Positions 8,310-64,000 of a stretch of DNA of 64,000 nucleotides are shown here, one piece after another (position 1 is the stretch's first letter; each line of letters starts with the position of its first letter). The notes beneath the pieces were generated by a model that was given only the letters and a program-made list of their open reading frames with translations, was not told where the DNA came from and did no database searches. The stretch spans positions 119,024-183,023 of the IMG/VR virus record IMGVR_UViG_3300030202_003733, one strand, 5' to 3'. The position numbers and the translations under genes are program-made. This stretch comes from a virus.

Positions 8310-10102
8310 TAACTTACGGCCCCTTTAATGTCGTTATCGGGGAATTTAATTTCTAACACGACGTTTTCTGGGACACTCACATACCTGCCGTCAGCGGACA
8401 TAAGCGTGTCAATGTCCAGTGCTACACTAGCGTAACTACCCCCAGTTTTCTGCACGACTTTAACATTTTTGGTATCTACAACTCCCCTAACCTTATTAAG
8501 TATGCTGTAGACTTCCGATACGTACATCGGCTCTCCTATATACAGTGGTTCGCGATAGCGCTCTCTCAATGCCAATACACAATTGGACAAAACATCAAAA
8601 CGGTTCTCTTGATCACCCACAACAACTTCAAACTCAATACCAATATTTGCTATTTTAGCATCTAAAATATCAATCGTGTCATTAATCATTTTATATTTAG
8701 AAAGCCAAGTTTTTAAATTCTCCTTGATGGTGGTATTGGCACCAGTCAATTTTTTAAATGAATTTTCAGCTATGACATATAAATTTAAATTTCTTTTAAG
8801 TGAATCTGGGTCGCGAACAATCCTACACCGTTTTATAGAACCAAATTTTTCCGGCATGGCGTAGACTGCTGCCTCATAGTCTTGCTGGGTTACTGCCCTG
8901 TTCTGCGTGGCAAAATGATCAATAGTTCTTCTTCTTAGTTCTTCGGCAGTCGGTAAAGAAATATCTCCCACAATTGGTTCGTCGTTAAAACACTCAAGAG
9001 AGGAACGCACTTCACTCATGCTAGCAGGAGCGAGGTTTGTTGTATCCTTAAACGATAAGACAGGACTTGACACTTGCGTAACGGACCCGGCTGCCGCATT
9101 GACATTCCCTGGGTCGTTGGATCTGTAAGTTATGGTAAGGGTTGTGTTCGCGGGGCTGATACCAAATTTGTCTGTTTGAAGTAACTTAGATGGATCAAAC
9201 GACGTGTCGGTTATATAATCTCTACCGTGCATTTCAAAAATCACATTAGTCGGGTCTGCGACAGACGGTGACTGAAGTTCACTAGTGGAGCCATAGCCAA
9301 ACTGCAAGTTAACAGAACCAAGCTCTCTCTCAATGACAAATCTTCTTGGGACGACAACTGGTTTTATTATAGACGGTACCACAGTGCTGTCGGCACCCCT
9401 GTTGGCTACCTCTTGATATACAACGTTTTGTGATAAATAATCCACCTCAAAATACTCGTTACCGTCTGAGTCTATAACCGATATAATATCAGCCACATTT
9501 GGGTCATCGATAAGAATCCTTCTGAATTTTTTAAATGACCCGACCGCAATCTCCTTAACTCTCATGCGCCCAGAGGCTATTTTACCATAACCCCTAATTG
9601 CATATGATGTGGGGACCCCTGTAGAATCGTCTACCCTGGCTACCACAACCTCGTTTGAGGGGTTATCAAAATTAACATCTTCTTCTAAGATAAACCCGTT
9701 GCCTGAAGTGGAAGTAAGTCTAGAGCCTTTCTGTAGGATCGGTATATAATTTGTGTCTGGGCCAAGGCCCGTGGAATTAGCCGGAACTATTACGTAAAAG
9801 GCTGCAAGGCCAAAGGAAGAAGGGCTAGATCTAAACTTGTAGCCCATCTGTCTGCTAAGTCTAACAATATTATCGTATTCAGTTGCAGAATCTAAAAATG
9901 TCTCATTTATATTATAATCTAAATAAAATGACATTATGTCTCCGACATATGCCACCGTATCGAGCATTAAAGAACCAAAAGACGCATCATTAAAATCCCT
10001 AAACGTGTCCGGGTAATACCTTTTAGCGTATTCTACAAGCTCTTGTTTAATGGAATCAAAGTCCCTACTTGTATATTTTATCGGTCTCATCTTCTTAGAC
10101 AT
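8309..10102 (-). CDS. Baseplate wedge protein, T4 gp6 / baseplate J-like
   Basis: 597 aa. YTSRDFDSIKQELVEY...DFNDASFGSLMLDTVAYVGDIMSFYLD N-terminus, NLQFGYG, and QNRAVTQQDYE motif typical of gp6. Confidence 0.9.
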   Translation of the reverse strand: MSKKMRPIKYTSRDFDSIKQELVEYAKRYYPDTFRDFNDASFGSLMLDTVAYVGDIMSFYLDYNINETFLDSATEYDNIVRLSRQMGYKFRSSPSSFGLAAFYVIVPANSTGLGPDTNYIPILQKGSRLTSTSGNGFILEEDVNFDNPSNEVVVARVDDSTGVPTSYAIRGYGKIASGRMRVKEIAVGSFKKFRRILIDDPNVADIISVIDSDGNEYFEVDYLSQNVVYQEVANRGADSTVVPSIIKPVVVPRRFVIERELGSVNLQFGYGSTSELQSPSVADPTNVIFEMHGRDYITDTSFDPSKLLQTDKFGISPANTTLTITYRSNDPGNVNAAAGSVTQVSSPVLSFKDTTNLAPASMSEVRSSLECFNDEPIVGDISLPTAEELRRRTIDHFATQNRAVTQQDYEAAVYAMPEKFGSIKRCRIVRDPDSLKRNLNLYVIAENSFKKLTGANTTIKENLKTWLSKYKMINDTIDILDAKIANIGIEFEVVVGDQENRFDVLSNCVLALRERYREPLYIGEPMYVSEVYSILNKVRGVVDTKNVKVVQKTGGSYASVALDIDTLMSADGRYVSVPENVVLEIKFPDNDIKGAVS

Positions 10103-10127
10103 ACAAACATAATCTCCGCTTCTTCAA

Positions 10128-10135
10128 TAAATAGT
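10128..10135 (-). promoter_or_regulatory. Putative phage late promoter core ACTATTTA upstream of gp6
   Basis: Exact ACTATTTA on the minus strand in the 45-bp intergenic gap. The same motif recurs upstream of other genes. Confidence 0.55.
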
Positions 10136-10147
10136 ATTATATATGAA

Positions 10148-10534
10148 TTAATTGCCGATAGGCAGTTCTAATATTTCTGTAGACATTAGAGGTTTAATAA
10201 AATAAACAATTCTAAGACGAATTGTATCTGACGGGTCAGCGTCAACGACATTTGGTGTTGAAAAGCTTATATCGCGAATCTGAATATATGGTAGATACTT
10301 GCTGGTCTGTTCCTCTATGGTTGATTTTATAAGATCATACGTCTCTGGCGAATTGTTCTCAAACAAGAAACCTAGAATACCGACACCAAAATTAACGTCC
10401 ATGATGCGCTCACCAGGATTAGTTAAAATCAGCATTTTAAAATTTTGCGCTGCTACCTCTTTTAAGTTTTTAGTCAAAGCATACCCATCATTGGGATCTC
10501 TTACCAGAGGTAATTTTGGTGATAAACCTGCCAT
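10148..10534 (-). CDS. Baseplate protein gp25 / GPW-like
   Basis: 128 aa. QNFKMLILTNPGERIMDVNFGVGILGFLFE...IEEQTSKYLPYIQI is the GPW_gp25 signature. Adjacent to gp6. Confidence 0.9.
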   Translation of the reverse strand: MAGLSPKLPLVRDPNDGYALTKNLKEVAAQNFKMLILTNPGERIMDVNFGVGILGFLFENNSPETYDLIKSTIEEQTSKYLPYIQIRDISFSTPNVVDADPSDTIRLRIVYFIKPLMSTEILELPIGN

Positions 10535-10538
10535 TATT

Positions 10539-13500
10539 CTACTCCTTACATGGTGGCGGCCTCAATGACCTCCACATCCACCATTTAATTTTCATACCCT
10601 CATTGCTTTTTACCCTAGAATTTCTTGCAAAATCCTCCCCAGGGGAGTCAAGATCTTCGTCTACAAAGTCAAAGTTGCCAACATTAAGTGCTGTCTTAAA
10701 TATCTGCTTGGAAGAATATTTACTCTCTTTAAATACATTAGTTCTTTCCCAATTCCTAAAGCCTTTTTTAAAACCAATTTTTGTACCACCCTCTTTAAAC
10801 CACCCATCGCCATATCTGTCACCGTATGAATAGTCACCATTATACTCAAGTTCACCAGCATCAACTAACTCCCTAGTTGGGCCGCCTCTGCCAATGGACG
10901 GCAAGAAAGCACGCAAACAAAAGACTGTAACAACAGACAGTATCCTCTCCAGTGGGAAACAATATTTAAATAGCATCTTGTACTCTGGCTCTTCTATAAT
11001 TTGGCAGATCAAATCAGGGAGGTAATTTGTTTGATACGAATTTATTTCGTCTATAACTTCCTCAAATGTAAGAGACATATCTATGGGTTTTTCTGTTGAT
11101 ACCAAAGGTGTCAGATACCTCGTGGTAACTGAGAAGGCCTTGTTTTCGTTGGCGTATGCCTCGTTAACTGAGACGCCTCCTATACCAGTCTCTGCTAGAT
11201 CAGTAGCAGTTGGAATATATGAAATTCTTAGCCCCATACTTAAGTTTTGAAAAATAGCGGACGCTTCGTCATCCGACAAACCAGAAATGTATGTTTCAAA
11301 CTCATCTAGGTTTACAACTTTTTTTAATTTACTATCTCTGTCGGGGGAACCGGCAAAATCCTCGACAAGAATATATTTCTCCAAAACAAAAGGCCAGTCT
11401 TCAAAACTGTCTCCTTCTCTTAGATAAGGATTTGTTTCGTTCGTGTCCCTAGATACGTGGATTGGTCCGCCCGAAGGAACACTTTCATAAATCCAATTAT
11501 CGTTTCCAAAAAATACATCAACCATGTTAGAAAGCGGAGGCGAAGTTTTTTCAATAAACATCTCAGACGCCCTCTCTAATTCATCAGAGACATACCTTCT
11601 CAAGAGTATTTTTGCATTGGCAATCACATCATCATCGTCAAGAAACTCGTATAAATTGTCTTTTTTGGCTTCTATTAAAGATCTTGGATCCGAACCACGG
11701 GTGGACACCGGGGGCTCCCATTCGTCCCTTACCTTGTTAAACAGAAATAATCTTGCTTCTTTTTCAAGTGGGGTCTCATCTTGTATCTCACCGATATCTA
11801 TTCTCTTTTGATATATTTGAACCGCCATCTCTAAAAAGGACAACATATACCTTCTGTTTCGAGGGAATGGGACGTTGTATTTTTTGCCCCTCCCAATATC
11901 AATCATAGACTCAACCATATCTTCTACGACATATGAAGAAAATACATCGGAATACATATCTCCAAATTTAGGCCTAAACAGGGAGAATGTACTTAGACCT
12001 TTTAGCATGGCCTCCAACAAATAAACTCTAATAGTTGCATTTATACTCCCCTCAATTGCGGCGACCTGGGAGCCTCTTAGCATCCTGTCGAACGGCTCTT
12101 CAATAATTTTATATTTTGGAGAGTCAAGTTGGAATCTATCGTCATCTTTAACTTTTTTAAATAATTCGTCACATCTGTTTTTTATTTCTATAAAGTTGCC
12201 AAGTGAGCTTCCTGTGGTAGTCGGGTCGTCACAGGAGTGTATCTCAGGCACAAGTTCTTGTGAGAGTTTGAGCCACCCAGTATATTTTGGATCCTGTATA
12301 TAGAATGGTGGGTTATCCGTTGTTCCCCCGTATTCATTTACAGCTTGGTCTAGTGTCAAACCTAAATCGTTATCTTGGTGGAAATAAACAATTTTTGGTA
12401 GAGCGTCGTCCTTGGGCATCCCTGTCTCAGTATCTATAGCACCTTTATATCCAAAGGTAAAAGCTTTTCTATTTGTAGATACTTTTTCTACTATCCGACT
12501 AAAAAATCCATCGTTAATAGTGTTAAAAACAGAAGACTCAAAATGTGGTCTAATGTCTTCAGAAAATCCCACACCCGCTGTTTCAGAGGCATCCTGCCAC
12601 AACTCGGTTATGTATTGGCCCCAAACGTGAGATGGGTTTGAAACGTTATATAGGGATGTTATTAAATCGGAAGTTGGTTGATCAATAAAGTCTGCTGATC
12701 GATATGTTAATTCAGAACCGTAGACTCTATCATCGGTGATTCTTATACGACACCTGTTATCTAATACATCATCCCCAGCCCACCAATCATATTTAACTGT
12801 AAAGTCGTACAAGTCGCTGCTTTCTTCGTCCTCAGAGCGGTAATCATTATATTTCATAACCATAGCAAATGTATCAGCTTTATTAAATGATTTGTTGAGA
12901 CATTGTTGTCCCCACTCTGGGTCCATCTCATCTTGTAGGTGTCCAGCTACCTTATCAGGGAATCCACCCACAGCAGGTGGCTGACCTACAATATCTGGTG
13001 CATCGTCGGCGTCGTCTGCTGGACCCCCTGCAATGCCATACGGATTGAGAAAATACGGGATAGTCCAAAAAGCCCTCTCATTGTTTCTAATAAGCTTCCA
13101 CTCGTCTCTAGGGGGGTTGATCCTAGTCCCCCTGGAACCATAAATATTCAACAAACCGGGGCCAAGAAAGCGTTCGAAGTTTGTGTGTTGTGTCAAGCCT
13201 CTTCCACGAGAATCAGCTAACACCATGTTTATAAATCCATCAGGGCCAACAAGATCTTGTGTGAACTGAAAATCCATTACGCCAAATAAACTTGTAAAAA
13301 TCCTTGAAGCCATATCTGCTGCAATTGGATCTATGTACGGCAATAAGCCTTGTTGGTTGGGGTCTTCCGGGTCGTCTAGGATGTCCGGGAAGAACTCAGA
13401 CAGATCACCCTGCCCCTGTAGGAAGTTGGCTAGTGCCTCTAGCTCCTCACCCAGCCTGTCTCTTAAACTACAAAGCTGATCCTGTATACATTCCTCAGAC

Positions 13501-34895: not shown

Positions 34896-36147
34896 CGTTC
34901 TCTTGCTCCAGACATGTTTTAACAACAAGTGCAGATTCAACAATCGCATCCTTTGAAATTGTAAGCGGGGGCCCAAATTTGATTGAGTTTCTACCAGTAT
35001 ACACAGGTAGAACGCCGTTTTGAATACATCTCTTGGCTACATTTGTTGCTGTCTCTGTGTCATGAAAAATAACGCCCGCAACCATCCCACGACAATTTAC
35101 ATCAGCAACAAGTGGTGACTCTAGTAGTTCTTCAAAATAACTTTCAAATACAGGTATTTTGTCTTGTAAATCTTTTTGAAATTTGTCGCTTGTTAAAAAA
35201 TTAATATTTGCCAATGAAGCGGCAGAACACAATGCATTTCCAGCATGTGTTCCCCCAACAACTGCTTTTTTATCAACATCTATAATCTCTTTGGTTCCCA
35301 GTAAGGCAGACATGGGTAATGAGGAAGATATCCCCTTGGCCAAACATATAAGGTCTGGCTTTATGTCGCTTGTGTAGGACATGTATCCGTATAGAGTACC
35401 CATCCTATAAAAACCAGCCTGTATTTCATCAAAACAAATCAATATACCGTGTTCTTTGGCAAAATCATAAAGGTCACGAATATATTGGTCCGGGTACATT
35501 AAAGCTCCCCAACCTTGGTATGTTTCAAGAAAAAAAGCAGCTATATCTTTAGGGTCTGGCAGAGCCGTGGGGTCGAAAACACAGTTTTTAGTCGGAAAGT
35601 CTATAAATTTGATACTTTCATCCTTAAAACCACACCACTCAGTTGTGGTTTCATCACCACAAAGTAAATCAGACCCAAGTGTCCTGCCATGATAGCTACC
35701 CCTGAATGATATTGTATATTTTCTATCATTCTTCGCGGCCCAAAATTTAATTAATTTTATTGCTATGTCTGTTACTTCTGAACCAGAGTTTAACAAAACT
35801 GCCTTTTCAAAGTGATCAGGCGATATTTCCAACAATCTATCAATAAAATCTGCCTTAGCTTGGTTGTTATAAAGGAAGGAAAACCACATATCCTTGTTAA
35901 GTTGTTGTTGAATAGCACTTTTGATCTCTGGGTTTGCATGTCCAGCGTTAGCCACAAATATCCCCGCTGTCATATCGATGTATTTATTACCGTAAGTGTC
36001 CCAGACACTAAAATCTTTAGCTCTTTCCCAATCTATAAGCTGCTGGCTCAGCGCTACTGACTCCCGGTCGCTTTTCTTTTTTGATAGCGTAGTTGGCGCA
36101 AACATCACCTTGCTAAGTATGTCTCTATTATTTGTCTTTATCATCAA
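34885..36147 (-). CDS. Class III PLP-dependent aminotransferase
   Basis: YIDMTAG, SGSEV, SYHGRT, FDEIQAGFYRMG and LAKGISSSLP. Confidence 0.9.
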   Translation of the reverse strand: MMIKTNNRDILSKVMFAPTTLSKKKSDRESVALSQQLIDWERAKDFSVWDTYGNKYIDMTAGIFVANAGHANPEIKSAIQQQLNKDMWFSFLYNNQAKADFIDRLLEISPDHFEKAVLLNSGSEVTDIAIKLIKFWAAKNDRKYTISFRGSYHGRTLGSDLLCGDETTTEWCGFKDESIKFIDFPTKNCVFDPTALPDPKDIAAFFLETYQGWGALMYPDQYIRDLYDFAKEHGILICFDEIQAGFYRMGTLYGYMSYTSDIKPDLICLAKGISSSLPMSALLGTKEIIDVDKKAVVGGTHAGNALCSAASLANINFLTSDKFQKDLQDKIPVFESYFEELLESPLVADVNCRGMVAGVIFHDTETATNVAKRCIQNGVLPVYTGRNSIKFGPPLTISKDAIVESALVVKTCLEQENDGI

Positions 36148-54907: not shown

Positions 54908-55516
54908 TTATATCTCCACTATTTTTTCTGCGATTGTGAGAATTGTATCTTGCACATCAAATTGGTCTTTAAAATCAGGCGCTAAATTGACACCATCTAA
55001 AGAAATGTTTGCCTCTTTGGATAAATTTTCTAATTTTTTTATGCTTCTCTTAGCGGCAACAGCCGGAGAAGCTGGATATTTACTAAAAAGTCTGGTTTCA
55101 TTTAGTTCACCCGCGCCGTAACGAAGGTCTTTAGTCAGACCGGACCCTGACTTTACAAAATTCTTCTTGAATCTTCTGACAGCTTCAGTTTCAACACCCT
55201 TTACGCTCGTCGTTTCTGGGTCTTCTATTGTGTCGAGTTCTTTTTCTATATCACCAACAGTGTCTTCGACATCTTCTATCTTCTCTTTTTCGCTTTTCGC
55301 AACCTTTTTGGGTTGTTTTTCTTGAGGATCTTTCTTTTTAACCTTGTCTTTTGTTTTTTTGACCGGAATATCCATCTCCCCAGCGATCATCTTCTCCATA
55401 TTAGCACTAGTAAACTTGCTATTACTAGAAGAGTAGACTTTATTCTTATCAATACCTTGTTCTTCAGCCTTTTCCAAAACTTTTTGGTAAAGCTGCTGTT
55501 TAGTTAGTTTTTTTTT
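54908..55516 (-). CDS. Charged hypothetical protein; 5' end entangled with an A10 run (frameshift candidate)
   Basis: The track ORF starts at TTG 55477, but the frame is open to the A10 run (KKKLTKQQLYQKVLEKAEE) with an in-frame TGA just upstream of it. Confidence 0.6.
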   Translation of the reverse strand, partial: KKKLTKQQLYQKVLEKAEEQGIDKNKVYSSSNSKFTSANMEKMIAGEMDIPVKKTKDKVKKKDPQEKQPKKVAKSEKEKIEDVEDTVGDIEKELDTIEDPETTSVKGVETEAVRRFKKNFVKSGSGLTKDLRYGAGELNETRLFSKYPASPAVAAKRSIKKLENLSKEANISLDGVNLAPDFKDQFDVQDTILTIAEKIVEI

Positions 55517-56277
55517 TGGTCGTCCTCATCTTCAGGAGACTCTTCGGGCGCACTTTCAGGCTCAGGCTCAGGCTCTGGAGGGGCCTCTGGCTCATTACCC
55601 ACCGCAGCCGCAGCAGTTGCCGCAGCAGCGCCGCCTACCTCGGGGCTAAAAAACCTTCTAAGTTTGCTTCCTTTCGGAAAAAGTTCTGCTACAGCATTAC
55701 AAATAGTTTCTCTAAGTTCATTCGCAAGAGCCTCCACAACACGAGCACTTTTGACAGCTTCACTAAACTGGTCAATCATAATCACGCCCCATGAGGTATT
55801 TTTATCGGCCCCAAGCTGTGTAGGTAGAGTTTTTGCGGCTAAGAATACAGAGGCCTGTGCAATGGCTTCTGCAATTTCTTGACAAGCAGATTCCTCACCT
55901 CTCCAAATTTGTAAAAGTTCACGAAATTCTATTTCTGCTACGAAAGCAGCAACAGCCGCCCTAACATCCGGATTTTTTATACCCAACATGCCGACAAGCT
56001 TACCAAAAAACCAACGTTTTAAACCATTTAAGACACCCTCGTATGTGCGCCCTGGGCCACCTGCTGTCATACCAAGAAGGCCTGCAATGGTTGAACTAAG
56101 AGATTCATTCATAAGTGACAAACGATCAGTAAAATCCTCTATACTACTAGATTCTGATAACAAAGAAACCAAAATCCTATCTTCTTTGGTTATATTGCTT
56201 CTCATATTTTCAATTATAATCTGATTTCTAATTTCGCTTGATATCAAACTACGCAAATTTTCTTCGGTGAGTATCAT
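55504..56277 (-). CDS. Hypothetical protein (probable internal/virion protein)
   Basis: 257 aa. N-terminus MILTEENLRSLISSEIRNQIIIE, helical core, Ala/Pro/Glu-rich tail. Confidence 0.75.
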   Translation of the reverse strand: MILTEENLRSLISSEIRNQIIIENMRSNITKEDRILVSLLSESSSIEDFTDRLSLMNESLSSTIAGLLGMTAGGPGRTYEGVLNGLKRWFFGKLVGMLGIKNPDVRAAVAAFVAEIEFRELLQIWRGEESACQEIAEAIAQASVFLAAKTLPTQLGADKNTSWGVIMIDQFSEAVKSARVVEALANELRETICNAVAELFPKGSKLRRFFSPEVGGAAAATAAAAVGNEPEAPPEPEPEPESAPEESPEDEDDQKKN

Positions 56278-56313: not shown

Positions 56314-57021
56314 TTACTTGTATTCCATATAAAATGGAAATTTATCAAGAATGCCAAAAACAGCTATTACATGCTTACACACCTTGTTAATTCTATTGGG
56401 GTCTCTGACCACTGGGTCGGATGCTGTGCCTGCGGGGGTCTGGTACTGATAATTCCCAGCCTTTGCGTTGTATTCGGGTCCACCCCACTTAAAAAATGGA
56501 CAGGTACATGAGACTTGTATGTCCGCCCTGTTAATATCTCTTAGATTGCCTCTTTTTAAGCCTTTTAAAGTTGTTATATACGAGCTTTTAGAGTTTGGTG
56601 GACATTTTTTATCGCCCTGTGCTCTACATCCCGGCACATTAAATTTCCACAAGCCTTGATCAGGTCGAGCATACACTAGCCTTATCCTGGGGGATCTATC
56701 TGGGTTTTCTATTTCTTGATCATATGGGTCGTTATTAGACGGCGACGGTGCTCCTCGGCCCACAATCACAGGGTTTGTAACACTACGAACGTCAGAATAG
56801 GTAGCCTCATTTAATAAAACACCCCTTCGAAGAAGTATTCTATTAGTTTGGGACTCAATATCGTAAAATTCATTTTCACATAAAGTGGTCAAAGAATTTT
56901 TTAAATTTTCAAATAAAAATCTTGGCATATCATGACCGTTACATACCCCACACGAATCAGAGTGATGTTCGTGTGGGGTATGTATAAAGTTTTTCCATGA
57001 ATTTAATTCTTTGTTTTGCAT
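56314..57021 (-). CDS. SWIM zinc-finger protein
   Basis: QVSCTCPFFKWGG...NKVCKHVIAV (CxC...CxH). Start is MQNKELNSWKNFI at 57021, or GTG at 57036. Confidence 0.75.
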   Translation of the reverse strand: MQNKELNSWKNFIHTPHEHHSDSCGVCNGHDMPRFLFENLKNSLTTLCENEFYDIESQTNRILLRRGVLLNEATYSDVRSVTNPVIVGRGAPSPSNNDPYDQEIENPDRSPRIRLVYARPDQGLWKFNVPGCRAQGDKKCPPNSKSSYITTLKGLKRGNLRDINRADIQVSCTCPFFKWGGPEYNAKAGNYQYQTPAGTASDPVVRDPNRINKVCKHVIAVFGILDKFPFYMEYK

Positions 57022-57028
57022 TTTCTTA

Positions 57029-57433
57029 TTATACACCTGTTTTAAAAATTTGAAAAGTATATTTCATAGTTTCTGAGTTTTGAAGCAATTCTTCCCTATA
57101 CCGGCCAGTCTTCTGTAGATCATCTATGTCGTGGCCCCTACTCCTTGCATTAGAAAGAGCCTTCTTCATTGCCACTGATTTATCTATGGAGGTCCCCACA
57201 CCGATTAACTCACCAGGTTCTTGTTCTGGGGCTGGCTCTTCGGATGGTTTCTTTTTCTTATGAAACAACTCTTGCATATCATCACTTGATGCGAGTGCTC
57301 GCTCTAAATCTAGCTTATGCTTCTTCCCCTCCGGGGTGTCGTCCCAGGTGCTCATAACAGCCTGAACTCGCTGTTGGAAGTCGTCTATCTCCTCAGCATC
57401 TCTTACTTCTTTAATTAATTTAATTTTAATCAT
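57029..57433 (-). CDS. Hypothetical protein
   Basis: 134 aa. N-terminus MIKIKLIKE. Confidence 0.7.
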   Translation of the reverse strand: MIKIKLIKEVRDAEEIDDFQQRVQAVMSTWDDTPEGKKHKLDLERALASSDDMQELFHKKKKPSEEPAPEQEPGELIGVGTSIDKSVAMKKALSNARSRGHDIDDLQKTGRYREELLQNSETMKYTFQIFKTGV

Positions 57434-58146
57434 TATTTATCTCCCGAAAATCCTGATAACCCTGTACTATTTAGGTGGAGTTCACCAAAACCGCCCCCTC
57501 CAGCCTTTCTTTTCATTCTTTGTCCTTCCACTAAAGAATATGAAATCTTTAAAGATGGACTACCAAGAAGTGACCCTGGGGCTATAATTGCAATCTCGTT
57601 ACTTCTTGATGACGGCGTTGTACCATCAACATCTAATTTTGATAACAAAAATATATTAAAATGACCCTTTTCCCTTATTACCTCATGCAAATGCTCTCTT
57701 AACCTGCCCTGAATTTTAATTTTGTTTACTCTACTAGCCCTTAGTGCTACAGCCCCAGGGTTTCCTATCTGACCCCAGTCATTGAATTCACGACGATCAC
57801 CCGTGCCGGTGGTTGTAATCGCTTTTGTATCAGCAAAAAGCATAATTTCATCGCCGGACCTGTCGCTGACTGTAATCGAACTAGGAAATAGAGACAATTC
57901 TGCATCTTCTAAGCGGAACCCCTGCTGAGGAATATCAAGACTGGTAAGATCAAAATTAAGATAGGCCCTAGCGCATGAAAAAGACCCATCACGATTAACA
58001 TTGGCCTTTATAATAAGCCCACTCCTTGACGAGTCGCAGGTAGTACTACTAACTACAGTTCTCCAAGCATCTCGCCGCCCCCCGTCTAAGGTGTAAGTAA
58101 AGTTGCCGGTACCACCTTCCGACCGCCCTGAATGTAATCTACCCAT
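57433..58146 (-). CDS. Beta-rich protein (DNRLRE-like fold), paralogue of the upstream gene
   Basis: RAYLNFDLTSLDIP...LEDAELSL and C-terminal KRKAGGGGFGE. Confidence 0.6.
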   Translation of the reverse strand: MGRLHSGRSEGGTGNFTYTLDGGRRDAWRTVVSSTTCDSSRSGLIIKANVNRDGSFSCARAYLNFDLTSLDIPQQGFRLEDAELSLFPSSITVSDRSGDEIMLFADTKAITTTGTGDRREFNDWGQIGNPGAVALRASRVNKIKIQGRLREHLHEVIREKGHFNIFLLSKLDVDGTTPSSRSNEIAIIAPGSLLGSPSLKISYSLVEGQRMKRKAGGGGFGELHLNSTGLSGFSGDK

Positions 58147-58167: not shown

Positions 58168-58944
58168 TTACCTCTCACCCGCAAATCCTGACATAGAGGT
58201 TGAAGGAACATTGGTTTCACCAAATCCACCGCCCCCTGCTTTTCTTTTGACTCTTATACCGGGCTTTCGCTCAAACCCAATAATAAATAACTCGGGGTTT
58301 TGGGCTGAAGCATGCGCCGTTGCAGCCAATCTTATTCGGTTAAGCCCAGTAGGGTCGTCCTGATTGGCATGATCATAATCTAATTTTGGCAATAGTGCGA
58401 TACCAATGTGGCCTGTAGCCCCTGTATCACCACCGGCTGCTCTACGTAAACGATTTTGCAGAACTGTTCTTAAATTTCCGTCTATAACAACGTCCGCGAC
58501 GGAGCCATTATCACCCAATACGGTTTCGGTTACGCTGGCAATGTTAAGATTTACTGCGTCATAATCCCCGACAACAAGAGAATCATCAGCTTGGCGATCT
58601 ACATTTGCTAAGAAAGGCTTTAAGGTTCTTCCTATGTCCCCGTCGTCGCCAGCGTTACTTGCTACTGTCCTTATGCGTACAAAAGCGTGTCTAACAACAA
58701 AATTAGTTGAAACTTTTGGATCCATATCAAGATCAAAAAATAAAAACCCTCGGCCATTAATCCACCCCGAGTGGGTTTTGCGGGTGATCAGCGATATCGT
58801 CTCGGTGTCTGGCCCGTCCGAAGTATTGCTGCCATCAATGCTCGCATCACCAACTATATCCACCCAATCGCCCGATGTAGCAGATTTACTAATTTGGCCA
58901 TCATTTTCCACATCGGCTGAACATCGTTTAAAATTTCTTGGCAT
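58168..58944 (-). CDS. Beta-rich protein (DNRLRE-like fold), paralogue of the downstream gene
   Basis: RGFLFFDLD...VRHAFVRI and C-terminal KRKAGGGGFGE. Confidence 0.6.
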   Translation of the reverse strand: MPRNFKRCSADVENDGQISKSATSGDWVDIVGDASIDGSNTSDGPDTETISLITRKTHSGWINGRGFLFFDLDMDPKVSTNFVVRHAFVRIRTVASNAGDDGDIGRTLKPFLANVDRQADDSLVVGDYDAVNLNIASVTETVLGDNGSVADVVIDGNLRTVLQNRLRRAAGGDTGATGHIGIALLPKLDYDHANQDDPTGLNRIRLAATAHASAQNPELFIIGFERKPGIRVKRKAGGGGFGETNVPSTSMSGFAGER

Positions 58945-58969: not shown

Positions 58970-59004
58970 TAATTAGTTCTTTGTCTTGTAAAACAAACTA
59001 ATTA
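58970..59004. promoter_or_regulatory. Divergent promoter pair (ACTAATTA on each strand, inverted repeat)
   Basis: TAATTAGT at 58970-58977 and ACTAATTA at 58997-59004 lie exactly at the switch from minus to plus transcription. Confidence 0.6.
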
Positions 59005-59034: not shown

Positions 59035-59910
59035 ATGAGTTTGTTATTAAAAGAATGGAAGACCTTTACTGAAAATAATAAAAACGCAGACTCTACCGCG
59101 ATGTGGAATGCAAAAAGAATAGAACAGTTAGCTAAAGCTGGGAATTGGCGCGACTGGAGTGAAGTATATCTAAAATTCTCACTAGAATGGGATTACAACA
59201 ATGTGGACCAGACAGAAGAGCTAGAAGAAGTAATAAGCAAGATAGAACCAATGTCCAACAACAAGGTGGTAAGACTTCTCGGCGTAGGGACACAGGGAGT
59301 GGTATTTGAACTCGATAACGGGCATGCATTAAAACTTTTTCGTAGAGGGTACTTAAGTTATGGCAACGTAGAGGGGGAAATGAATTTTTATTCCTCATCA
59401 AAGGAAAAACTTTTCACAAAAAAAGGCAAGCTTCACACACTCCCAGTGTACGATTACGGCAAAACAGACGATGGTTTATATTGGGTTGAAATGGCCAAAT
59501 TGGTTCCACTGGACCATTATGCGGAAATGACTGGTAGAGAAGATCCAACTGGGCTCATGACACTGATAGTTGAATATCTGATTGAATTTGAGGATATGGA
59601 AACTGATGGGGATGGCTACCTGCACGACGATGAAGAAGATCGTCAGGATTATGAAAATAAACGCAAGATACACATGCAATCAATAAAAAAACAAGCCGAA
59701 AAAGCACAACTTACTTTAAGAGAACTGGGGTCACTAATCGATACAATTAAATCAGTGTATGATGAATATGGCGAGTCATATGTGTTAGATTTACACTCAG
59801 GAAATATGGGTGTGTTAGAAACATCAACCTTTAGGCACGGTGCGGCTCACGATAAGAAAAGAATAATGGACCCAACAAGAACACCTCGTTTTGTTCTTTT
59901 TGACCCATAG
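59035..59910 (+). CDS. Atypical protein-kinase-like fold protein with N-terminal W-motif tag
   Basis: MSLLLKEWKTFTE; LGVGTQGVVF, ALKL, VEM, DLHSGN and FVLFDP. Confidence 0.7.
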   Translation: MSLLLKEWKTFTENNKNADSTAMWNAKRIEQLAKAGNWRDWSEVYLKFSLEWDYNNVDQTEELEEVISKIEPMSNNKVVRLLGVGTQGVVFELDNGHALKLFRRGYLSYGNVEGEMNFYSSSKEKLFTKKGKLHTLPVYDYGKTDDGLYWVEMAKLVPLDHYAEMTGREDPTGLMTLIVEYLIEFEDMETDGDGYLHDDEEDRQDYENKRKIHMQSIKKQAEKAQLTLRELGSLIDTIKSVYDEYGESYVLDLHSGNMGVLETSTFRHGAAHDKKRIMDPTRTPRFVLFDP

Positions 59911-59922
59911 GATACAACAAAA

Positions 59923-60597
59923 ATGAAATTAATAATGGAAAACTGGAGAGGATTTATAAAAGAGAAGCTCGCGCTAAAGCCAGGCCCAAGGGGCTGGGAC
60001 TTGTATGCGAACCTTGTCACAGAGGCCTATATGAAAGCTCCTGTTTTTGAAGATCGCGCTGCGCCGGCGTGGGAAGCCCTAATACCTTTTATAGATAAAA
60101 TGTATAAGCAGATACAAACTCGTATCGATATTGAACCTGTAGATTATCACCCTTATGATGTGGGTTTAGATGTTGATGTCACAGGTGCTGACAGGATGAG
60201 ACAGTCCGTTGAGGATACGGGCAAACTTCTAGTGTCAAAGTCAGACGCCGAGCACCCCATATTTGATGAAGAGACTAATGTTAAATTTAGAGCCGTACAC
60301 GATTATATGACTCACATACAGCCAAAAATACCGGCGGGTTTCACATCTGCCAAAAAACAAGGGTCAATTCATCAGGAACTTCGTGCTTATAATATACATG
60401 CCAAGACTGTCCCTAAAGCTGCAATACCTGCATTGTTTACCGAAGTGGTTGGGCAAGTATGCACTTTCTATGTAACCGGAAAATTTCAAGAGCAGAAAGT
60501 GTGCATCTTAGACGGTTTTGATTATATTAATGTTGGTGTTGTTGACGGATATAATATAGTTAACAAGGAGCTTATTAAAAATGAAACTCCTGCTTGA
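59923..60597 (+). CDS. Hypothetical protein with FRAVHD motif and N-terminal W-motif tag
   Basis: MKLIMENWRGFIKE; FRAVHDYMTH...ELRAY..H...TEVVGQ...G.F.EQK. Confidence 0.75.
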   Translation: MKLIMENWRGFIKEKLALKPGPRGWDLYANLVTEAYMKAPVFEDRAAPAWEALIPFIDKMYKQIQTRIDIEPVDYHPYDVGLDVDVTGADRMRQSVEDTGKLLVSKSDAEHPIFDEETNVKFRAVHDYMTHIQPKIPAGFTSAKKQGSIHQELRAYNIHAKTVPKAAIPALFTEVVGQVCTFYVTGKFQEQKVCILDGFDYINVGVVDGYNIVNKELIKNETPA

Positions 60598-61015
60598 AAC
60601 ATGGCGTAAATATTTAAATGAGGAGAAGGTTGATCCTCAAATGAAAAAATATCTTGACGATCACCCCTATATGGAACCTGACGGCCTCCAAGAAGAACCA
60701 AAAAAAGGAACAGGGAAGAAACCAAAGGGATCCGGAAGGCGTCTTTACACGGACGAAGACCCAAGTGATACGGTATCGGTTAAATTTTCTACTGTTCAGG
60801 ATATTAAAGACACCCTATCTAAATCTTCATTCAAGGCAAAATCTCACAAACGCCAGTCGCAAATAATTAATCTTATCCACCAAAGAGCACGCGCAGCCTA
60901 TCAGAATGCCAAAGATCCAAAAGTAAAAGCTAGGCTTAAAAAATCTTTTGAGTACGCTAAAAAAAGAAAAGAGGCCTCCAAAGCCAAAACCAAACGGATG
61001 AATAAAAACAAATGA
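60581..61015 (+). CDS. Basic hypothetical protein with N-terminal W-motif tag
   Basis: MKLLLETWRKYLNE; RRLYTDEDPSDTVSVKF and a Lys/Arg-rich C-half. Confidence 0.75.
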   Translation: MKLLLETWRKYLNEEKVDPQMKKYLDDHPYMEPDGLQEEPKKGTGKKPKGSGRRLYTDEDPSDTVSVKFSTVQDIKDTLSKSSFKAKSHKRQSQIINLIHQRARAAYQNAKDPKVKARLKKSFEYAKKRKEASKAKTKRMNKNK

Positions 61016-61521
61016 AACTTCTACTTGAAAACTGGAAAAAGTATTTACATGAAGCTTCTGTTGGGTCTGACCTGGCAAAGTCAATCGAATACACAGCTTT
61101 TTTTCTAGATCCTCAGCACGAGGGAACAAAAAAATTAAAAGATATGATCCCTGGGGGTTGGAAGGAATACGCTGATCACATGACAATGATACCCCCGACA
61201 GATATGAAGCAAAGGGTATCCCCTAGTCAACTTGGCAAAGGCTGCATCAAAGTGGTTGGGATTGCAAAAGATGATAGGGTTATGGCTGGTCTAATTGAAT
61301 TTACGGATGAATTTATGCTTTACTCAAAAAATAAGATATCACATATTACAATTGCAACAAGCAAAAAACCATTGCTCGGAACAAAAGACATAGGTTCCTC
61401 TCACTACTCTCCGGCCCTCTCAAATGAATTTACAATGGATGATTTTGAGGATATAGAGCCTATAGAAGTGTGCGGTGAGGTAAAAGAAAAAATGCGCCAA
61501 AGCCCAGAGGACAAAGAATAA
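61012..61521 (+). CDS. 2H phosphoesterase with N-terminal W-motif tag
   Basis: MKLLLENWKKYLHE; two HxT motifs (DHMTM and SHITIA), W before the first motif, and SNEF near the C-terminus. Confidence 0.75.
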   Translation: MKLLLENWKKYLHEASVGSDLAKSIEYTAFFLDPQHEGTKKLKDMIPGGWKEYADHMTMIPPTDMKQRVSPSQLGKGCIKVVGIAKDDRVMAGLIEFTDEFMLYSKNKISHITIATSKKPLLGTKDIGSSHYSPALSNEFTMDDFEDIEPIEVCGEVKEKMRQSPEDKE

Positions 61522-62363
61522 TGAACAAATTATTTAAAAACTGGCGTGGGTATATTTTTGAGCAACAAGGTTCGTGGCTTGAAGATCTTAAGAAAGACCC
61601 CGGCGCGGTCTTAGATGAGACAAAATTTAAAGAGGTGGGTACCGGCGCATTCCGAACAGCATACAAACCAATTGGAGTCGATGGTTATATTATTAAAGTC
61701 ATTCAAAACCCTAGAGATACATTTATGAATACTAAAGATGTAGAACTATCAAAAAAGTACCCCGATATAATCCCAAAAACATACGCCCATGGTCCATGCT
61801 ATGAAAAAGATGGACAACAAAAGTGTGGTTACGAATGGATTATAATGGAAGAGGTTAAACCAATTGAGCTACAAGATAAAAATCTTTTTATAGAAATGAT
61901 GAAGGTCAACTTTCCCGAAATAATAAATTTTTTAGTCACAGATGAAAAAGGAAAAAAAGTTTTGGAGAGATATATGGCTACTAGGGCTTTCTATATCATG
62001 GCTATTTGGGAATTAATTGTAGAAAGTATAAATCACGGCAGCCTCAAATACGGAGAATATTCTAGTGAGCAGAGGGCTAAAATCGAAGATGAACCCGAGT
62101 CTGTGCCACCAGGAACTCTAGACATACCCGATATGCCTATGATGGGAGAGCCAGGGAGTGAAGATGTTTCCTTTGTAAATTGGAAAGATATTCAAGAAAT
62201 ATACAAGAAAATCTTTGATATTGGGATGAACAATAACGTTTACAGGCAACTATTTAAACTAGTTACTGTAGACGAGGCCGATATGTTTGACATAGGGCCA
62301 GGAAATATTGCTATCGACGATAAATCAAACTTTAAAGTATTAGACACATCAATATTTAATTAA
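61521..62363 (+). CDS. Atypical protein-kinase-like fold protein with N-terminal W-motif tag
   Basis: MNKLFKNWRGYIFE; VGTGAFRTAY, IIKV, IIMEEV, DIGPGN and KVLD. Confidence 0.7.
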   Translation: MNKLFKNWRGYIFEQQGSWLEDLKKDPGAVLDETKFKEVGTGAFRTAYKPIGVDGYIIKVIQNPRDTFMNTKDVELSKKYPDIIPKTYAHGPCYEKDGQQKCGYEWIIMEEVKPIELQDKNLFIEMMKVNFPEIINFLVTDEKGKKVLERYMATRAFYIMAIWELIVESINHGSLKYGEYSSEQRAKIEDEPESVPPGTLDIPDMPMMGEPGSEDVSFVNWKDIQEIYKKIFDIGMNNNVYRQLFKLVTVDEADMFDIGPGNIAIDDKSNFKVLDTSIFN

Positions 62364-62373
62364 GGAAAATAAA

Positions 62374-63486
62374 ATGAGCTTAACATTTAATCTAAATTCT
62401 CTTGAAGAGAAAAAGAAAAAAAAGAAGAAAAAAAAGAAGAGTGGCGGTAAGAAAGATGCCTGCTATCACAAGGTCAAGTCACGATACAAAGTTTGGCCAT
62501 CGGCATACGCGTCAGGCGCTTTAGTCAAGTGTAGAAAAGTCGGTGCAAAGAACTGGGGTAGCAAAACTACCAAGGAAGAACTGGAGCTTTATGAAGGCAA
62601 AGAGAGCCTCGAAGCAAAAATTCGTGATGTCCTTATCAAAGAGGGTGGTGCTGCTGGTATGAAAGCCCTCAAGGAACAAACCAAACACACAGAAAAAGAA
62701 ATCAAAGATGCAATCGAAGGTATGAAGGATGTAGTGCAACACGAACATGGTGATTACTATTTGGTAGAAGATAAAACTATCGATGAAGAGAACTTACACA
62801 AGTGGTTTAAAGATGGCGGTTGGAAGCAAGCCGGTGGAAAACACGATGGGAAACCTTGTGCCCGGCAACCCGGCCAAAAGACAACACCGAAATGCGTTTC
62901 CAGGTCAAAGTTTAAAAGCATGTCCAAGAAGCAGCGTGACAACGCAGCACGTAGGAAAAGAAAAAAAGATCCAAACCAACCGAAGAAAACTGGCGCTGCC
63001 AAACCAACTAATGTAAAGACAGACCCACAAAAAGAAAACCTTATCAAAAGGCTGGCAGATGAATTAATCAATGAAATGATTGAACAAGAACTGTCCGAGG
63101 TCTTCTCAGAAAAAAATATGGTTGAAGAATACCAAATGACTGAAGCTACCTACGAGGACGGCAGCCCAGTGGAAGAAGACTTTGGATTTTACGAAAATTT
63201 AGAGTCTTTGGAGGAAGCGGAATACCAAGGTCGCAAAGTAAAATTAAATAAGATAATGCGTGGTGATGTTAAAAAGTTTAAAGTTTTTGTTAAGGATCCT
63301 AAAACAAAAAATGTCAAAAAGGTTAATTTTGGCCACGGTGGTACAAGTGCAAAGAAGAAGGGTGAAAAAACTATGAAGATTCGTAAAAGTAATCCAAAGG
63401 CTCGTAAATCTTTCCGTGCTCGCCATAACTGCGACAACCCAGGTCCTAAGACGAAAGCTCGGTATTGGTCTTGCAGGAAATGGTAA
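62374..63486 (+). CDS. Modular basic protein (cyanophage-type internal protein modules separated by acidic spacers)
   Basis: Poly-Lys + KKDACYHKVKSRYKVWPSAYASGALVKCRK; ENLHKWF...KPC...PKC; EAEYQGRKVKLNK...RKSFRARHNC...ARYWSCRKW. Confidence 0.8.
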   Translation: MSLTFNLNSLEEKKKKKKKKKKSGGKKDACYHKVKSRYKVWPSAYASGALVKCRKVGAKNWGSKTTKEELELYEGKESLEAKIRDVLIKEGGAAGMKALKEQTKHTEKEIKDAIEGMKDVVQHEHGDYYLVEDKTIDEENLHKWFKDGGWKQAGGKHDGKPCARQPGQKTTPKCVSRSKFKSMSKKQRDNAARRKRKKDPNQPKKTGAAKPTNVKTDPQKENLIKRLADELINEMIEQELSEVFSEKNMVEEYQMTEATYEDGSPVEEDFGFYENLESLEEAEYQGRKVKLNKIMRGDVKKFKVFVKDPKTKNVKKVNFGHGGTSAKKKGEKTMKIRKSNPKARKSFRARHNCDNPGPKTKARYWSCRKW

Positions 63487-64000
63487 ATGAAGCTTCTACT
63501 TGAAAAATGGCGAGGATATATAAACGAAATATCATTTGACGCTGTTAGTGCGTTTGAATTTGACGATCGCCAATGGGAACACAAAGCATACGTATATAGA
63601 TTTTCTGATCATGAAGATCAAACCTATGAAGTAAAGTTCAATCCAATGGATAGAGGTAGCATCATTAGTTGGGATATTGATTATAAGGTAGAAGGTGGCG
63701 AATACTATGAATTAACGGGCAAAAATATAGTTGTGAAAGTAATGGCCACAGTAGCCCAGATTGTAATGGACTTTATTAAAAGACCCGATCGCCCAGTTGA
63801 ACAACAAAAAAGAATTTTTTACTTTTCTGGGGCAATCGGACCTGGTGAGACCGACGCGTTCGCGGGTATATCTGCTGGGAAAAGAACTAGGCTTTACACA
63901 CACATGCTTATGAAGATGCTCCCGGCAGGGTGGGATATGTCAGTAGATTCTAAAACACCAAATGCTATTTGGTTTTTTAACGAAAAAGAACTCGGCAATC
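63487..64000 (+). CDS. Hypothetical protein with N-terminal W-motif tag; runs off the right edge
   Basis: ATG immediately after the upstream TAA: MKLLLEKWRGYINEISFDAV...ELTGKNIVVKVMATV...RTRLY. Open to the window end and absent from the ORF track. Confidence 0.75.
   Translation, partial: MKLLLEKWRGYINEISFDAVSAFEFDDRQWEHKAYVYRFSDHEDQTYEVKFNPMDRGSIISWDIDYKVEGGEYYELTGKNIVVKVMATVAQIVMDFIKRPDRPVEQQKRIFYFSGAIGPGETDAFAGISAGKRTRLYTHMLMKMLPAGWDMSVDSKTPNAIWFFNEKELGN

Follow-up and report, generated by a model that had tools for sequence, protein, structure and literature searches.

The sequence analyzed here, referred to throughout as the window, is a stretch of 64,000 nucleotides that makes up the final 64 kb of the 183,023-bp viral contig IMGVR_UViG_3300030202_003733 (positions 119,024–183,023), which derives from an uncultured, T4-related 183-kb ocean phage. 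At window positions 59035–64000 lie seven tightly packed plus-strand genes, five of which begin with a strong copy and one with a weaker copy of the same short peptide, whereas the remaining gene is untagged. This peptide, the tag, occupies the 14 residues of the extreme N terminus and has the consensus MKLL[LFIVM]ENW[RK]x[YF][LI]xE. The features of the array are listed below; positions are those of the window unless said to be those of the genome.

58970–59004 (no strand): intergenic region between divergent genes, in which the candidate late-promoter element ACTAATTA occurs twice
59035–59910 (+): tagged gene 1, 291 amino acids; weak tag MSLLLKEWKTFTE at 59035–59073, protein-kinase-like body
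59923–60597 (+): tagged gene 2, 224 amino acids; tag MKLIMENWRGFIKE at 59923–59964, body with invariant His/Asp/Glu residues (FRAVHDYMTH)
60581–61015 (+): tagged gene 3, 144 amino acids; tag MKLLLETWRKYLNE at 60581–60622, basic body with an isoelectric point of ~10
61012–61521 (+): tagged gene 4, 169 amino acids; tag MKLLLENWKKYLHE at 61012–61053, 2H phosphoesterase body
61521–62363 (+): tagged gene 5, 280 amino acids; tag MNKLFKNWRGYIFE at 61521–61562, probable atypical kinase body
62374–63486 (+): untagged gene, 370 amino acids; very basic, with a run of ten Lys residues
63487–64000 (+), ending at genome position 224 across the circular junction: tagged gene 6, 212 amino acids in all; tag MKLLLEKWRGYINE at 63487–63528

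An initial annotation of this DNA had described six of the seven genes as beginning with a near-identical 14-mer. All six N termini were found where it had placed them, and the copies at 59923, 60581, 61012, 61521, and 63487 are strong, whereas the copy at 59035 is degenerate and only 13 residues long; it was recovered by the tag profile with an E value of 1.4e-5. The extent of the array had been underestimated, because 14–15 genes rather than six carry the tag genome-wide. Six-frame translation of the 183-kb genome gave nine occurrences of the core W[KR]x[FY][LIMVFT]xE, where about one would be expected by chance (our own estimate from composition), and eight of these nine stand at the ATG of a long open reading frame (ORF). 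When a position matrix was applied, 13 ORF starts scored 16.8–44.4 and the top internal site scored 8.3. Searches with the tag profile returned 15 places in the genome, among them the 59035 copy and a 46-codon mini-ORF, giving a total of 14 tagged genes and one tagged mini-ORF. The mini-ORF (genome ~35149–35286, minus strand) starts with MKDLMQSWQTFLNE, lies just upstream of a tagged 417-amino acid gene (35095), and could be either a remnant or a very small cargo.

The two ends of the contig repeat 98 nt (window 63903–64000 corresponds to genome 1–98, with the last base differing), and the record was therefore taken to be a circular or permuted complete genome; the IMG/VR entry for the same record lists it as linear and 81% complete. 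Because the contig ends overlap, the array runs on past the end of the window, with tagged starts at genome positions 208, 2114, 2428, 2875, 6094, and 6833. Further tagged starts are found on the minus strand at genome positions 35095, 36509, and ~35286. Beyond the tag, the proteins share nothing, as had been noted initially: BLASTP at 1e-4 among the 14 tagged proteins gave no within-genome pair, so that the bodies are mutually unrelated, and alignment shows conservation in columns 1–14 alone. The initial observation holds, on a larger scale than first described.

Several of the bodies could be assigned. Two kinase folds had been proposed in the initial annotation, the first of which is based on a match of tagged gene 1 to phrog_15752, a T7 gp0.7-type protein kinase (E 3.1e-6). 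For the second, the 280-residue product of tagged gene 5, the evidence consists of motifs and of weak fold matches to a low-confidence model (predicted local distance difference test score (pLDDT) of 60); the top matches are all protein kinases or aminoglycoside phosphotransferases, at E values of 0.008 or higher, and the body is probably an atypical kinase. Only three homologues of this protein were found, one of which, at 48% identity, carries the canonical MKLLLENWRKYL. The proposed 2H phosphoesterase holds for tagged gene 4, which matched Pfam PF08302 (tRNA_lig_CPD) above the cut-off (E 8.8e-7, 29.1 bits against a cut-off of 23) and shows two HxT motifs in its translation. The proposed basic protein is likewise present as the 144-residue product of tagged gene 3, for which Pfam and PHROG scans gave no family match.

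The AlphaFold2 model of the 224-residue product of tagged gene 2 is of higher confidence (pLDDT 82, predicted template modeling score 0.80), with residues 1–13 below 50 and placed as a short helix off the globular body. Comparison of this model with the PDB gave no significant match: the best Foldseek E value was 0.84, and VIA-align scored highest against zincin-like chains, including the ArdC metalloprotease domain, at a Z of 3.7, too low to be meaningful. Part of Rhodococcus phage E3 gp205 shares 30% identity (E 3e-13) with the domain, and the gp205 record carries the label "structural protein" on an unconfirmed basis. The untagged 370-residue protein matches phrog_727 and other PHROG families, with tblastn matches in 383 phage records, and is a mosaic of short modules from cyanophage, pelagiphage, and roseophage records, some of them labeled structural protein. 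PADLOC, run on ten array proteins (nine tagged and the untagged basic one), returned nothing useful.

The tag is conserved as a peptide but not in its coding DNA. Leu codons within the tags vary (TTA, CTC, CTT, and CTA), as do Arg codons (CGT, AGA, CGA, and CGC), and the 40 nt upstream of each tag are mutually unrelated; for these two reasons, neither recent copying of a 5′ cassette nor a common translation-initiation region accounts for the identity of the leaders. The main residues occur across 229 distinct tags of related contigs at frequencies of 97% for Lys2, 92% for Leu4, ~100% for Glu6, 93% for Asn7, 99% for Trp8, 95% for Tyr/Phe11, 93% for Leu/Ile12, and 92% for Glu14, values that are biased somewhat upward by collection of the loci with a consensus-based pattern. 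Conservation collapses directly after Glu14, with no residue above 25% at any later position, and in a further 3% of tags the Glu is found at position 15 instead of 14. Within the family of the 224-residue protein, the tag core is kept in 105 of the 120 best homologues, down to ~50% identity (50–60%), and mean column conservation is 0.77 for the tag and 0.72 for the enzyme body. These sequences provide evidence that selection acts on the tag peptide itself.

The tag was compared with the capsid targeting sequence (CTS) of T4. In the T4 record, the internal proteins IPII and IPIII begin MKTYQEFIAE, IPI begins MKTFKEFTSTTTPVSTITE (MKTFKEFTS…), and gp24 begins MAKINELLRE. The first 10 residues of T4 IPIII suffice for incorporation into the head, residues 4 and 7 of the CTS serving mainly in targeting and residues 8 and 10 in processing, and cleavage by gp21 follows L/I-x-E (PMC9026906). 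When positions are counted back from the Glu, which is how the correspondence was obtained, Tyr4, Phe7, Ile8, and Glu10 of T4 fall on Trp8, Tyr/Phe11, Leu/Ile12, and Glu14 of the tag, and these equivalents of the mapped T4 residues rank among its most conserved positions. The tag also ends in a gp21-type L/I-x-E motif.

A gp21-family prohead protease is encoded at genome 85085–85690, with its family match at 85172–85603 (Peptidase_S77, PF03420, E 8.2e-27; phrog_207, E 2.8e-51). It stands in a T4-like head module with the order large terminase, portal, three small genes, Peptidase_S77, a 132-amino acid gene, a 156-amino acid gene, an S21-like gene, a 415-amino acid gene, and the gp23-type major capsid gene. 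Two of the three small genes between portal and protease had no family match and one was left out of the scan. The 132-residue product is a core candidate. The 415-residue product, a scaffold candidate, is acidic and rich in [LIV]xE, and its gene lies between those of the protease and the major capsid protein, the position of gp22; it matches no family. T4 gp23 and the major capsid protein of this phage have propeptides that can be aligned, ending in FLTE followed by AE and in ELLRE followed by AS, respectively, which is consistent with an unchanged L/I-x-E specificity in this phage. A motif in the propeptide of the phage (capsid protein N terminus at genome 82400–82522, minus strand), LLGKWEKTGLLEG (LLNKWKPLLEG in T4), resembles the tag LLLENWRKYLNE with a different spacing, and one may speculate that the tag imitates the LL-x-K-W…LLE scaffold-binding helix of the major capsid propeptide. 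The S21-like gene of the module (genome 83871–84176, minus strand; L006:7871–8176) encodes a homologue of ribosomal protein S21 (phrog_21469, 7.9e-9), and an annotated RpsU is found at the same place in Microcystis phage Mel-JY01.

The protease was surveyed across 25 tag-bearing viral contigs longer than 60 kb, and Peptidase_S77 was found in all six that are at least 90% complete, the 19 others being fragments. The protease gene of one relative (G013) is flanked by two inserted, lineage-specific genes that contain the W core (L133:14477–15025 and L133:15980–17050); one of them begins MKLLLEHWNRYLQEE, and the other holds ATWRTFLNE at residues 15–23. The present genome has no counterpart of these two genes.

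By portal sequence, the nearest cultured relatives of the phage are Microcystis phage Mel-JY01 (41% identity), which has the same head-module order, and Flavobacterium phage immuto (39%). The tag was also searched for as a degenerate DNA pattern, with a chance expectation that we estimate at far below 1, and was found in at least 118 IMG/VR stretches. Among 185,579 prokaryote genomes it was found in six stretches, all of them on contigs of no more than 16 kb from metagenome-assembled genomes, and four of the six carry two tags. The tag is essentially confined to phages. A tblastn search of GenBank phages with a 21-residue tag returned nothing at E ≤10, the query being too short. Profile searches of three complete relatives gave 8, 11, and 15 hits, mostly in arrays.

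That the cargo, by which we mean the protein behind the tag, is swappable had been proposed in the initial annotation and is supported by a comparison of genomes: the 43 tagged proteins of five genomes fall into 34 families, five of which are common to more than one genome. Related phages carry strongly differing sets of cargo. Across 124 loci (~1.03 Mb), 251 tags were counted, heading 218 complete ORFs in 114 families. A Pfam match was obtained for ~10 of 113 family representatives, the families matched being Pkinase, Zeta_toxin/AAA_33, PolyA_pol, GNAT, DUF192, PGDYG, and HAD_SAK_1. In the present genome, cargo matches also include an NT5C-type nucleotidase (phrog_2643, 1.4e-17) and DUF5591; the other tagged cargo, beyond the matches already named, has no family match. 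A tagged 244-residue protein (genome 6094–6828, plus strand; L002) has a sub-threshold match to PF23780 (1.3e-4, 22.4 bits against a cut-off of 28); if this match to an S-adenosylmethionine lyase were real, an activity of the T3 anti-restriction type would be present within the cargo.

Upstream sequences were examined for signals of timing. An 8-mer search of 75 regions showed ACTAATTA to be 22-fold enriched in upstream intergenic DNA. The element, written more generally as ACTA[AT]TTA, stands 17–43 nt ahead of the tail sheath, tail tube, head–tail adaptor-like, and baseplate wedge genes. One copy (58997–59004, plus strand) lies 30 nt before the ATG of the first tagged gene at 59035, and a mirror copy (58977–58970, minus strand) lies 25 nt before the divergent minus-strand gene that starts at 58944. 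In relatives, ACTA[AT]TTA precedes the first gene of tagged arrays and keeps to one strand, being strand-specific with counts of 7:0, 5:1, 0:8, 0:5, and 5:0. We infer it to be a candidate late-promoter element of the lineage. Genome-wide, 38 copies are present, 16 of them in 9.8 kb of upstream intergenic DNA. Scans for sigma-70 promoters and terminators gave results at or below the level of shuffled sequence.

The best reading of these results is that the tag is a CTS of the T4 type and that the proteins bearing it are loaded into the head, relieved of the tag, and delivered with the DNA; we put the probability of this at about 0.65. The 14-residue leader would bind the assembling prohead core, by which the protein behind it would be enclosed in the head. 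The gp21-family prohead protease would cut after the final Glu of the tag, at L/I-x-E, and the mature proteins would be retained in the head with the DNA and would enter the host at infection. Expression of the tagged genes would be late. The delivered cargo would comprise kinase-like proteins, a 2H phosphoesterase, an NT5C-type nucleotidase, small basic proteins, and many proteins without a match. The initial annotation had already suggested a portable packaging tag, and of this the portable N-terminal leader on unrelated cargo, the L/I-x-E end, and the match to the T4-mapped residues are in place, and packaging itself is probable.

Several points weigh against this reading. About 8% of the tags do not have Glu14, and about half of those have Glu15. 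What follows the Glu varies and is frequently an acidic residue, not the small one found at the sites in T4 IPII/IPIII, gp23, and gp24. IPII and IPIII are basic, whereas acidic proteins predominate in the cargo. Within the family of the 224-residue protein, the tag is conserved only as much as the enzyme body. Co-occurrence of tag and protease does not single the protease out, because all the other T4 core genes accompany it as well. Profile searches found no tag in Mel-JY01, and no cultured phage of the GenBank phage set carries one; the phage and its relatives belong to an uncultured clade. With respect to timing, the late-promoter role of ACTA[AT]TTA is one that we infer, and the T4 late promoter TATAAATA was tried and rejected as a candidate, being unenriched with 6 copies observed and 6.3 expected.

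The alternative that survives best, which we nevertheless regard as unlikely, is that the tag serves as a helix for docking to something other than the prohead core, such as a chaperone, a membrane, or a hub protein of phage or host, and that it gathers many accessory proteins at one place or time with no encapsidation. The models, in which the tag is a short amphipathic helix that does not pack against the cargo, would suit such a role, and much of the cargo consists of ordinary-looking enzymes (nucleotidase, phosphoesterase, and kinases) that could act in the infected cell. However, docking does not explain why the tag ends in a protease motif (Glu in 92%) at which conservation stops sharply, why the four positions mapped in the T4 CTS are conserved, or why genes with the W core stand beside the protease gene in G013, and no conserved untagged partner gene is evident within the arrays.

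It is also conceivable, but improbable, that the tag is loaded and clipped as in T4 and that the cargo then acts or is degraded inside the head, in scaffolding, DNA condensation, or size control. The T4 core proteins gp67, gp68, and gp22, which are tagged or processed, are assembly factors, most fragments of which leave the head (PMC9026906), and part of the cargo is small and basic. The turnover of the cargo, with its 34 families among 43 proteins, fits accessory effectors better than parts of an assembly pathway, however, and the enzymes among it (kinases, zeta-toxin-like kinases, nucleotidyltransferases, and the 2H phosphoesterase) are likewise better suited to effectors, for which T4 IPI, IPIII, and Alt provide a precedent of host-directed roles (PMC3012670, PMC9391042).

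A leader that serves as the recognition or modification site of a dedicated enzyme, in the manner of ribosomally synthesized and post-translationally modified peptides (RiPPs), would have the same general architecture of one short conserved leader on many unrelated bodies, and the genome does encode one radical S-adenosylmethionine gene. We consider this very improbable, as the sole PF04055 match (genome 146796–147326) sits in a sugar operon of a glycan island ~31 kb from the array, no modifying enzyme recurs in the arrays, and the tag has no conserved Cys, Ser, or Thr. Unlike the leaders of RiPP-like and radical S-adenosylmethionine systems, the tag has no linked maturase gene; its end is a head-protease site, and it agrees with the T4 CTS. 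Finally, the view that the shared start is a functionless peptide reflecting an expression need or recent recombinational copying of a 5′ cassette is scarcely credible. Highly expressed phage genes do often have Lys as their second codon and early codons rich in A, but here synonymous sites vary from leader to leader, the ribosome-binding regions are unrelated, Trp, Tyr/Phe, Leu/Ile, and Glu hold fixed positions across more than 200 distinct genes, and tag residues are kept within one family down to ~50% body identity.

Other leaders and neighboring genes were noted in the course of the analysis. A second helical N-terminal leader, resembling M-I-V/L-T-K-S-D-I-E..II.EE, is found on several other minus-strand proteins, which are listed here.

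Window 55504–56277 (−): protein with the second leader
Genome 99999–101786 (−): protein with the second leader
Genome 10164–11378 (−): protein with the second leader
Genome 9670–10167 (−): protein with the second leader
Genome 96267–98222 (−): protein with the second leader
Genome 73126–73455 (−): protein with the second leader
Genome 84690–85088 (−): protein with the second leader, encoded by the 132-amino acid gene beside the protease

A 739-residue protein (genome 101799–104018) carries the second leader followed by YKRYLNE, which is the core of the tag with Tyr in place of Trp. Next to the array, the paralogous minus-strand neighbors at 57433–58146 and 58168–58944 have a common C-terminal motif, KRKAGGGGFGE…SGF[SA]G[DE][KR], and no family match was found for either. 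The protein at 56314–57036 (minus strand) begins with MQNKELNSWKNFIHT, which resembles the tag core but lacks its final Glu, and a weak SWIM zinc-finger match to its body falls just under the cut-off.

If the tag works like the T4 CTS, every protein that bears it becomes a candidate for delivery with the DNA. More tentatively, the tag could act as an address label, legible in the sequence, for the proteins injected by a widespread, uncultured clade of T4-like ocean phages. Were this so, the effectors of the first minute of infection could be listed from metagenomes alone, with at least 114 families in ~1 Mb, and the list would span protein kinases, zeta-toxin-like kinases, nucleotidyltransferases, acetyltransferases, and the 2H phosphoesterase. 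The class of delivered proteins in T4 holds the anti-restriction and host-takeover factors IPI, IPIII, and Alt (PMC3012670, PMC9391042). Because the clade is uncultured and more than 90% of the cargo families have no Pfam match, the tag would offer a simple means of picking proteins for anti-defense and host-takeover screens. It would also provide a second, sequence-divergent CTS to set beside that of T4, which could reveal what the prohead core recognizes, and it may serve as a packaging tag in phage engineering.

The kind of system is already known from the CTS and internal proteins of T4; what is new is its lineage, a tag that is longer and contains Trp, and a cargo set of this size and turnover. 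The giant phages phiKZ and SPN3US, in which propeptides are removed at a short motif ending in Glu, are set apart by the length of those propeptides, which are not known to amount to one short portable tag. In phiKZ and SPN3US, many proteins are packaged in the head after propeptide removal by the prohead protease (PMC5694885, PMC10052503). The system closest to the present one is that of T4, with which it has in common a short N-terminal leader on otherwise unrelated proteins, the core of aromatic-x-x-aromatic-aliphatic-x-Glu with an L/I-x-E end, a gp21-family protease encoded within a T4-like head module, and, as for the ip genes, cargo genes placed outside the head module on the strand opposite to the structural genes. 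The T4 CTS has 10 residues, whereas the tag has 14, adding a nearly invariant MKLL-x-EN ahead of the Trp, and T4 has 3–4 tagged genes per genome compared with 14–15 here. The residue after the Glu is small in T4 but not here, and the cargo is mostly acidic and in large part enzyme-like, in contrast to the basic IPII and IPIII. The internal proteins of the T-even phages form a diverse set that counters host defenses and has only the CTS in common (Rao and Black 2010, PMC3012670), and IPIII is required on one Escherichia coli strain (PMC9391042). The tagged arrays resemble the polymorphic internal-protein loci of the T-even phages (PMC3012670) in having a constant tag with cargo that differs from phage to phage, but they do so on another scale and in another lineage, an uncultured marine clade whose portal is ~40% identical to those of its nearest cultured relatives. 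Literature searches on capsid targeting in cyanophages or marine phages returned T4 reviews only, with no published description of the tag, and a full-text search for the string LLENW returned unrelated words only. Set beside T4, the arrays described here would represent the same principle of one short leader on many unrelated proteins, carried by a longer leader and a larger cargo.

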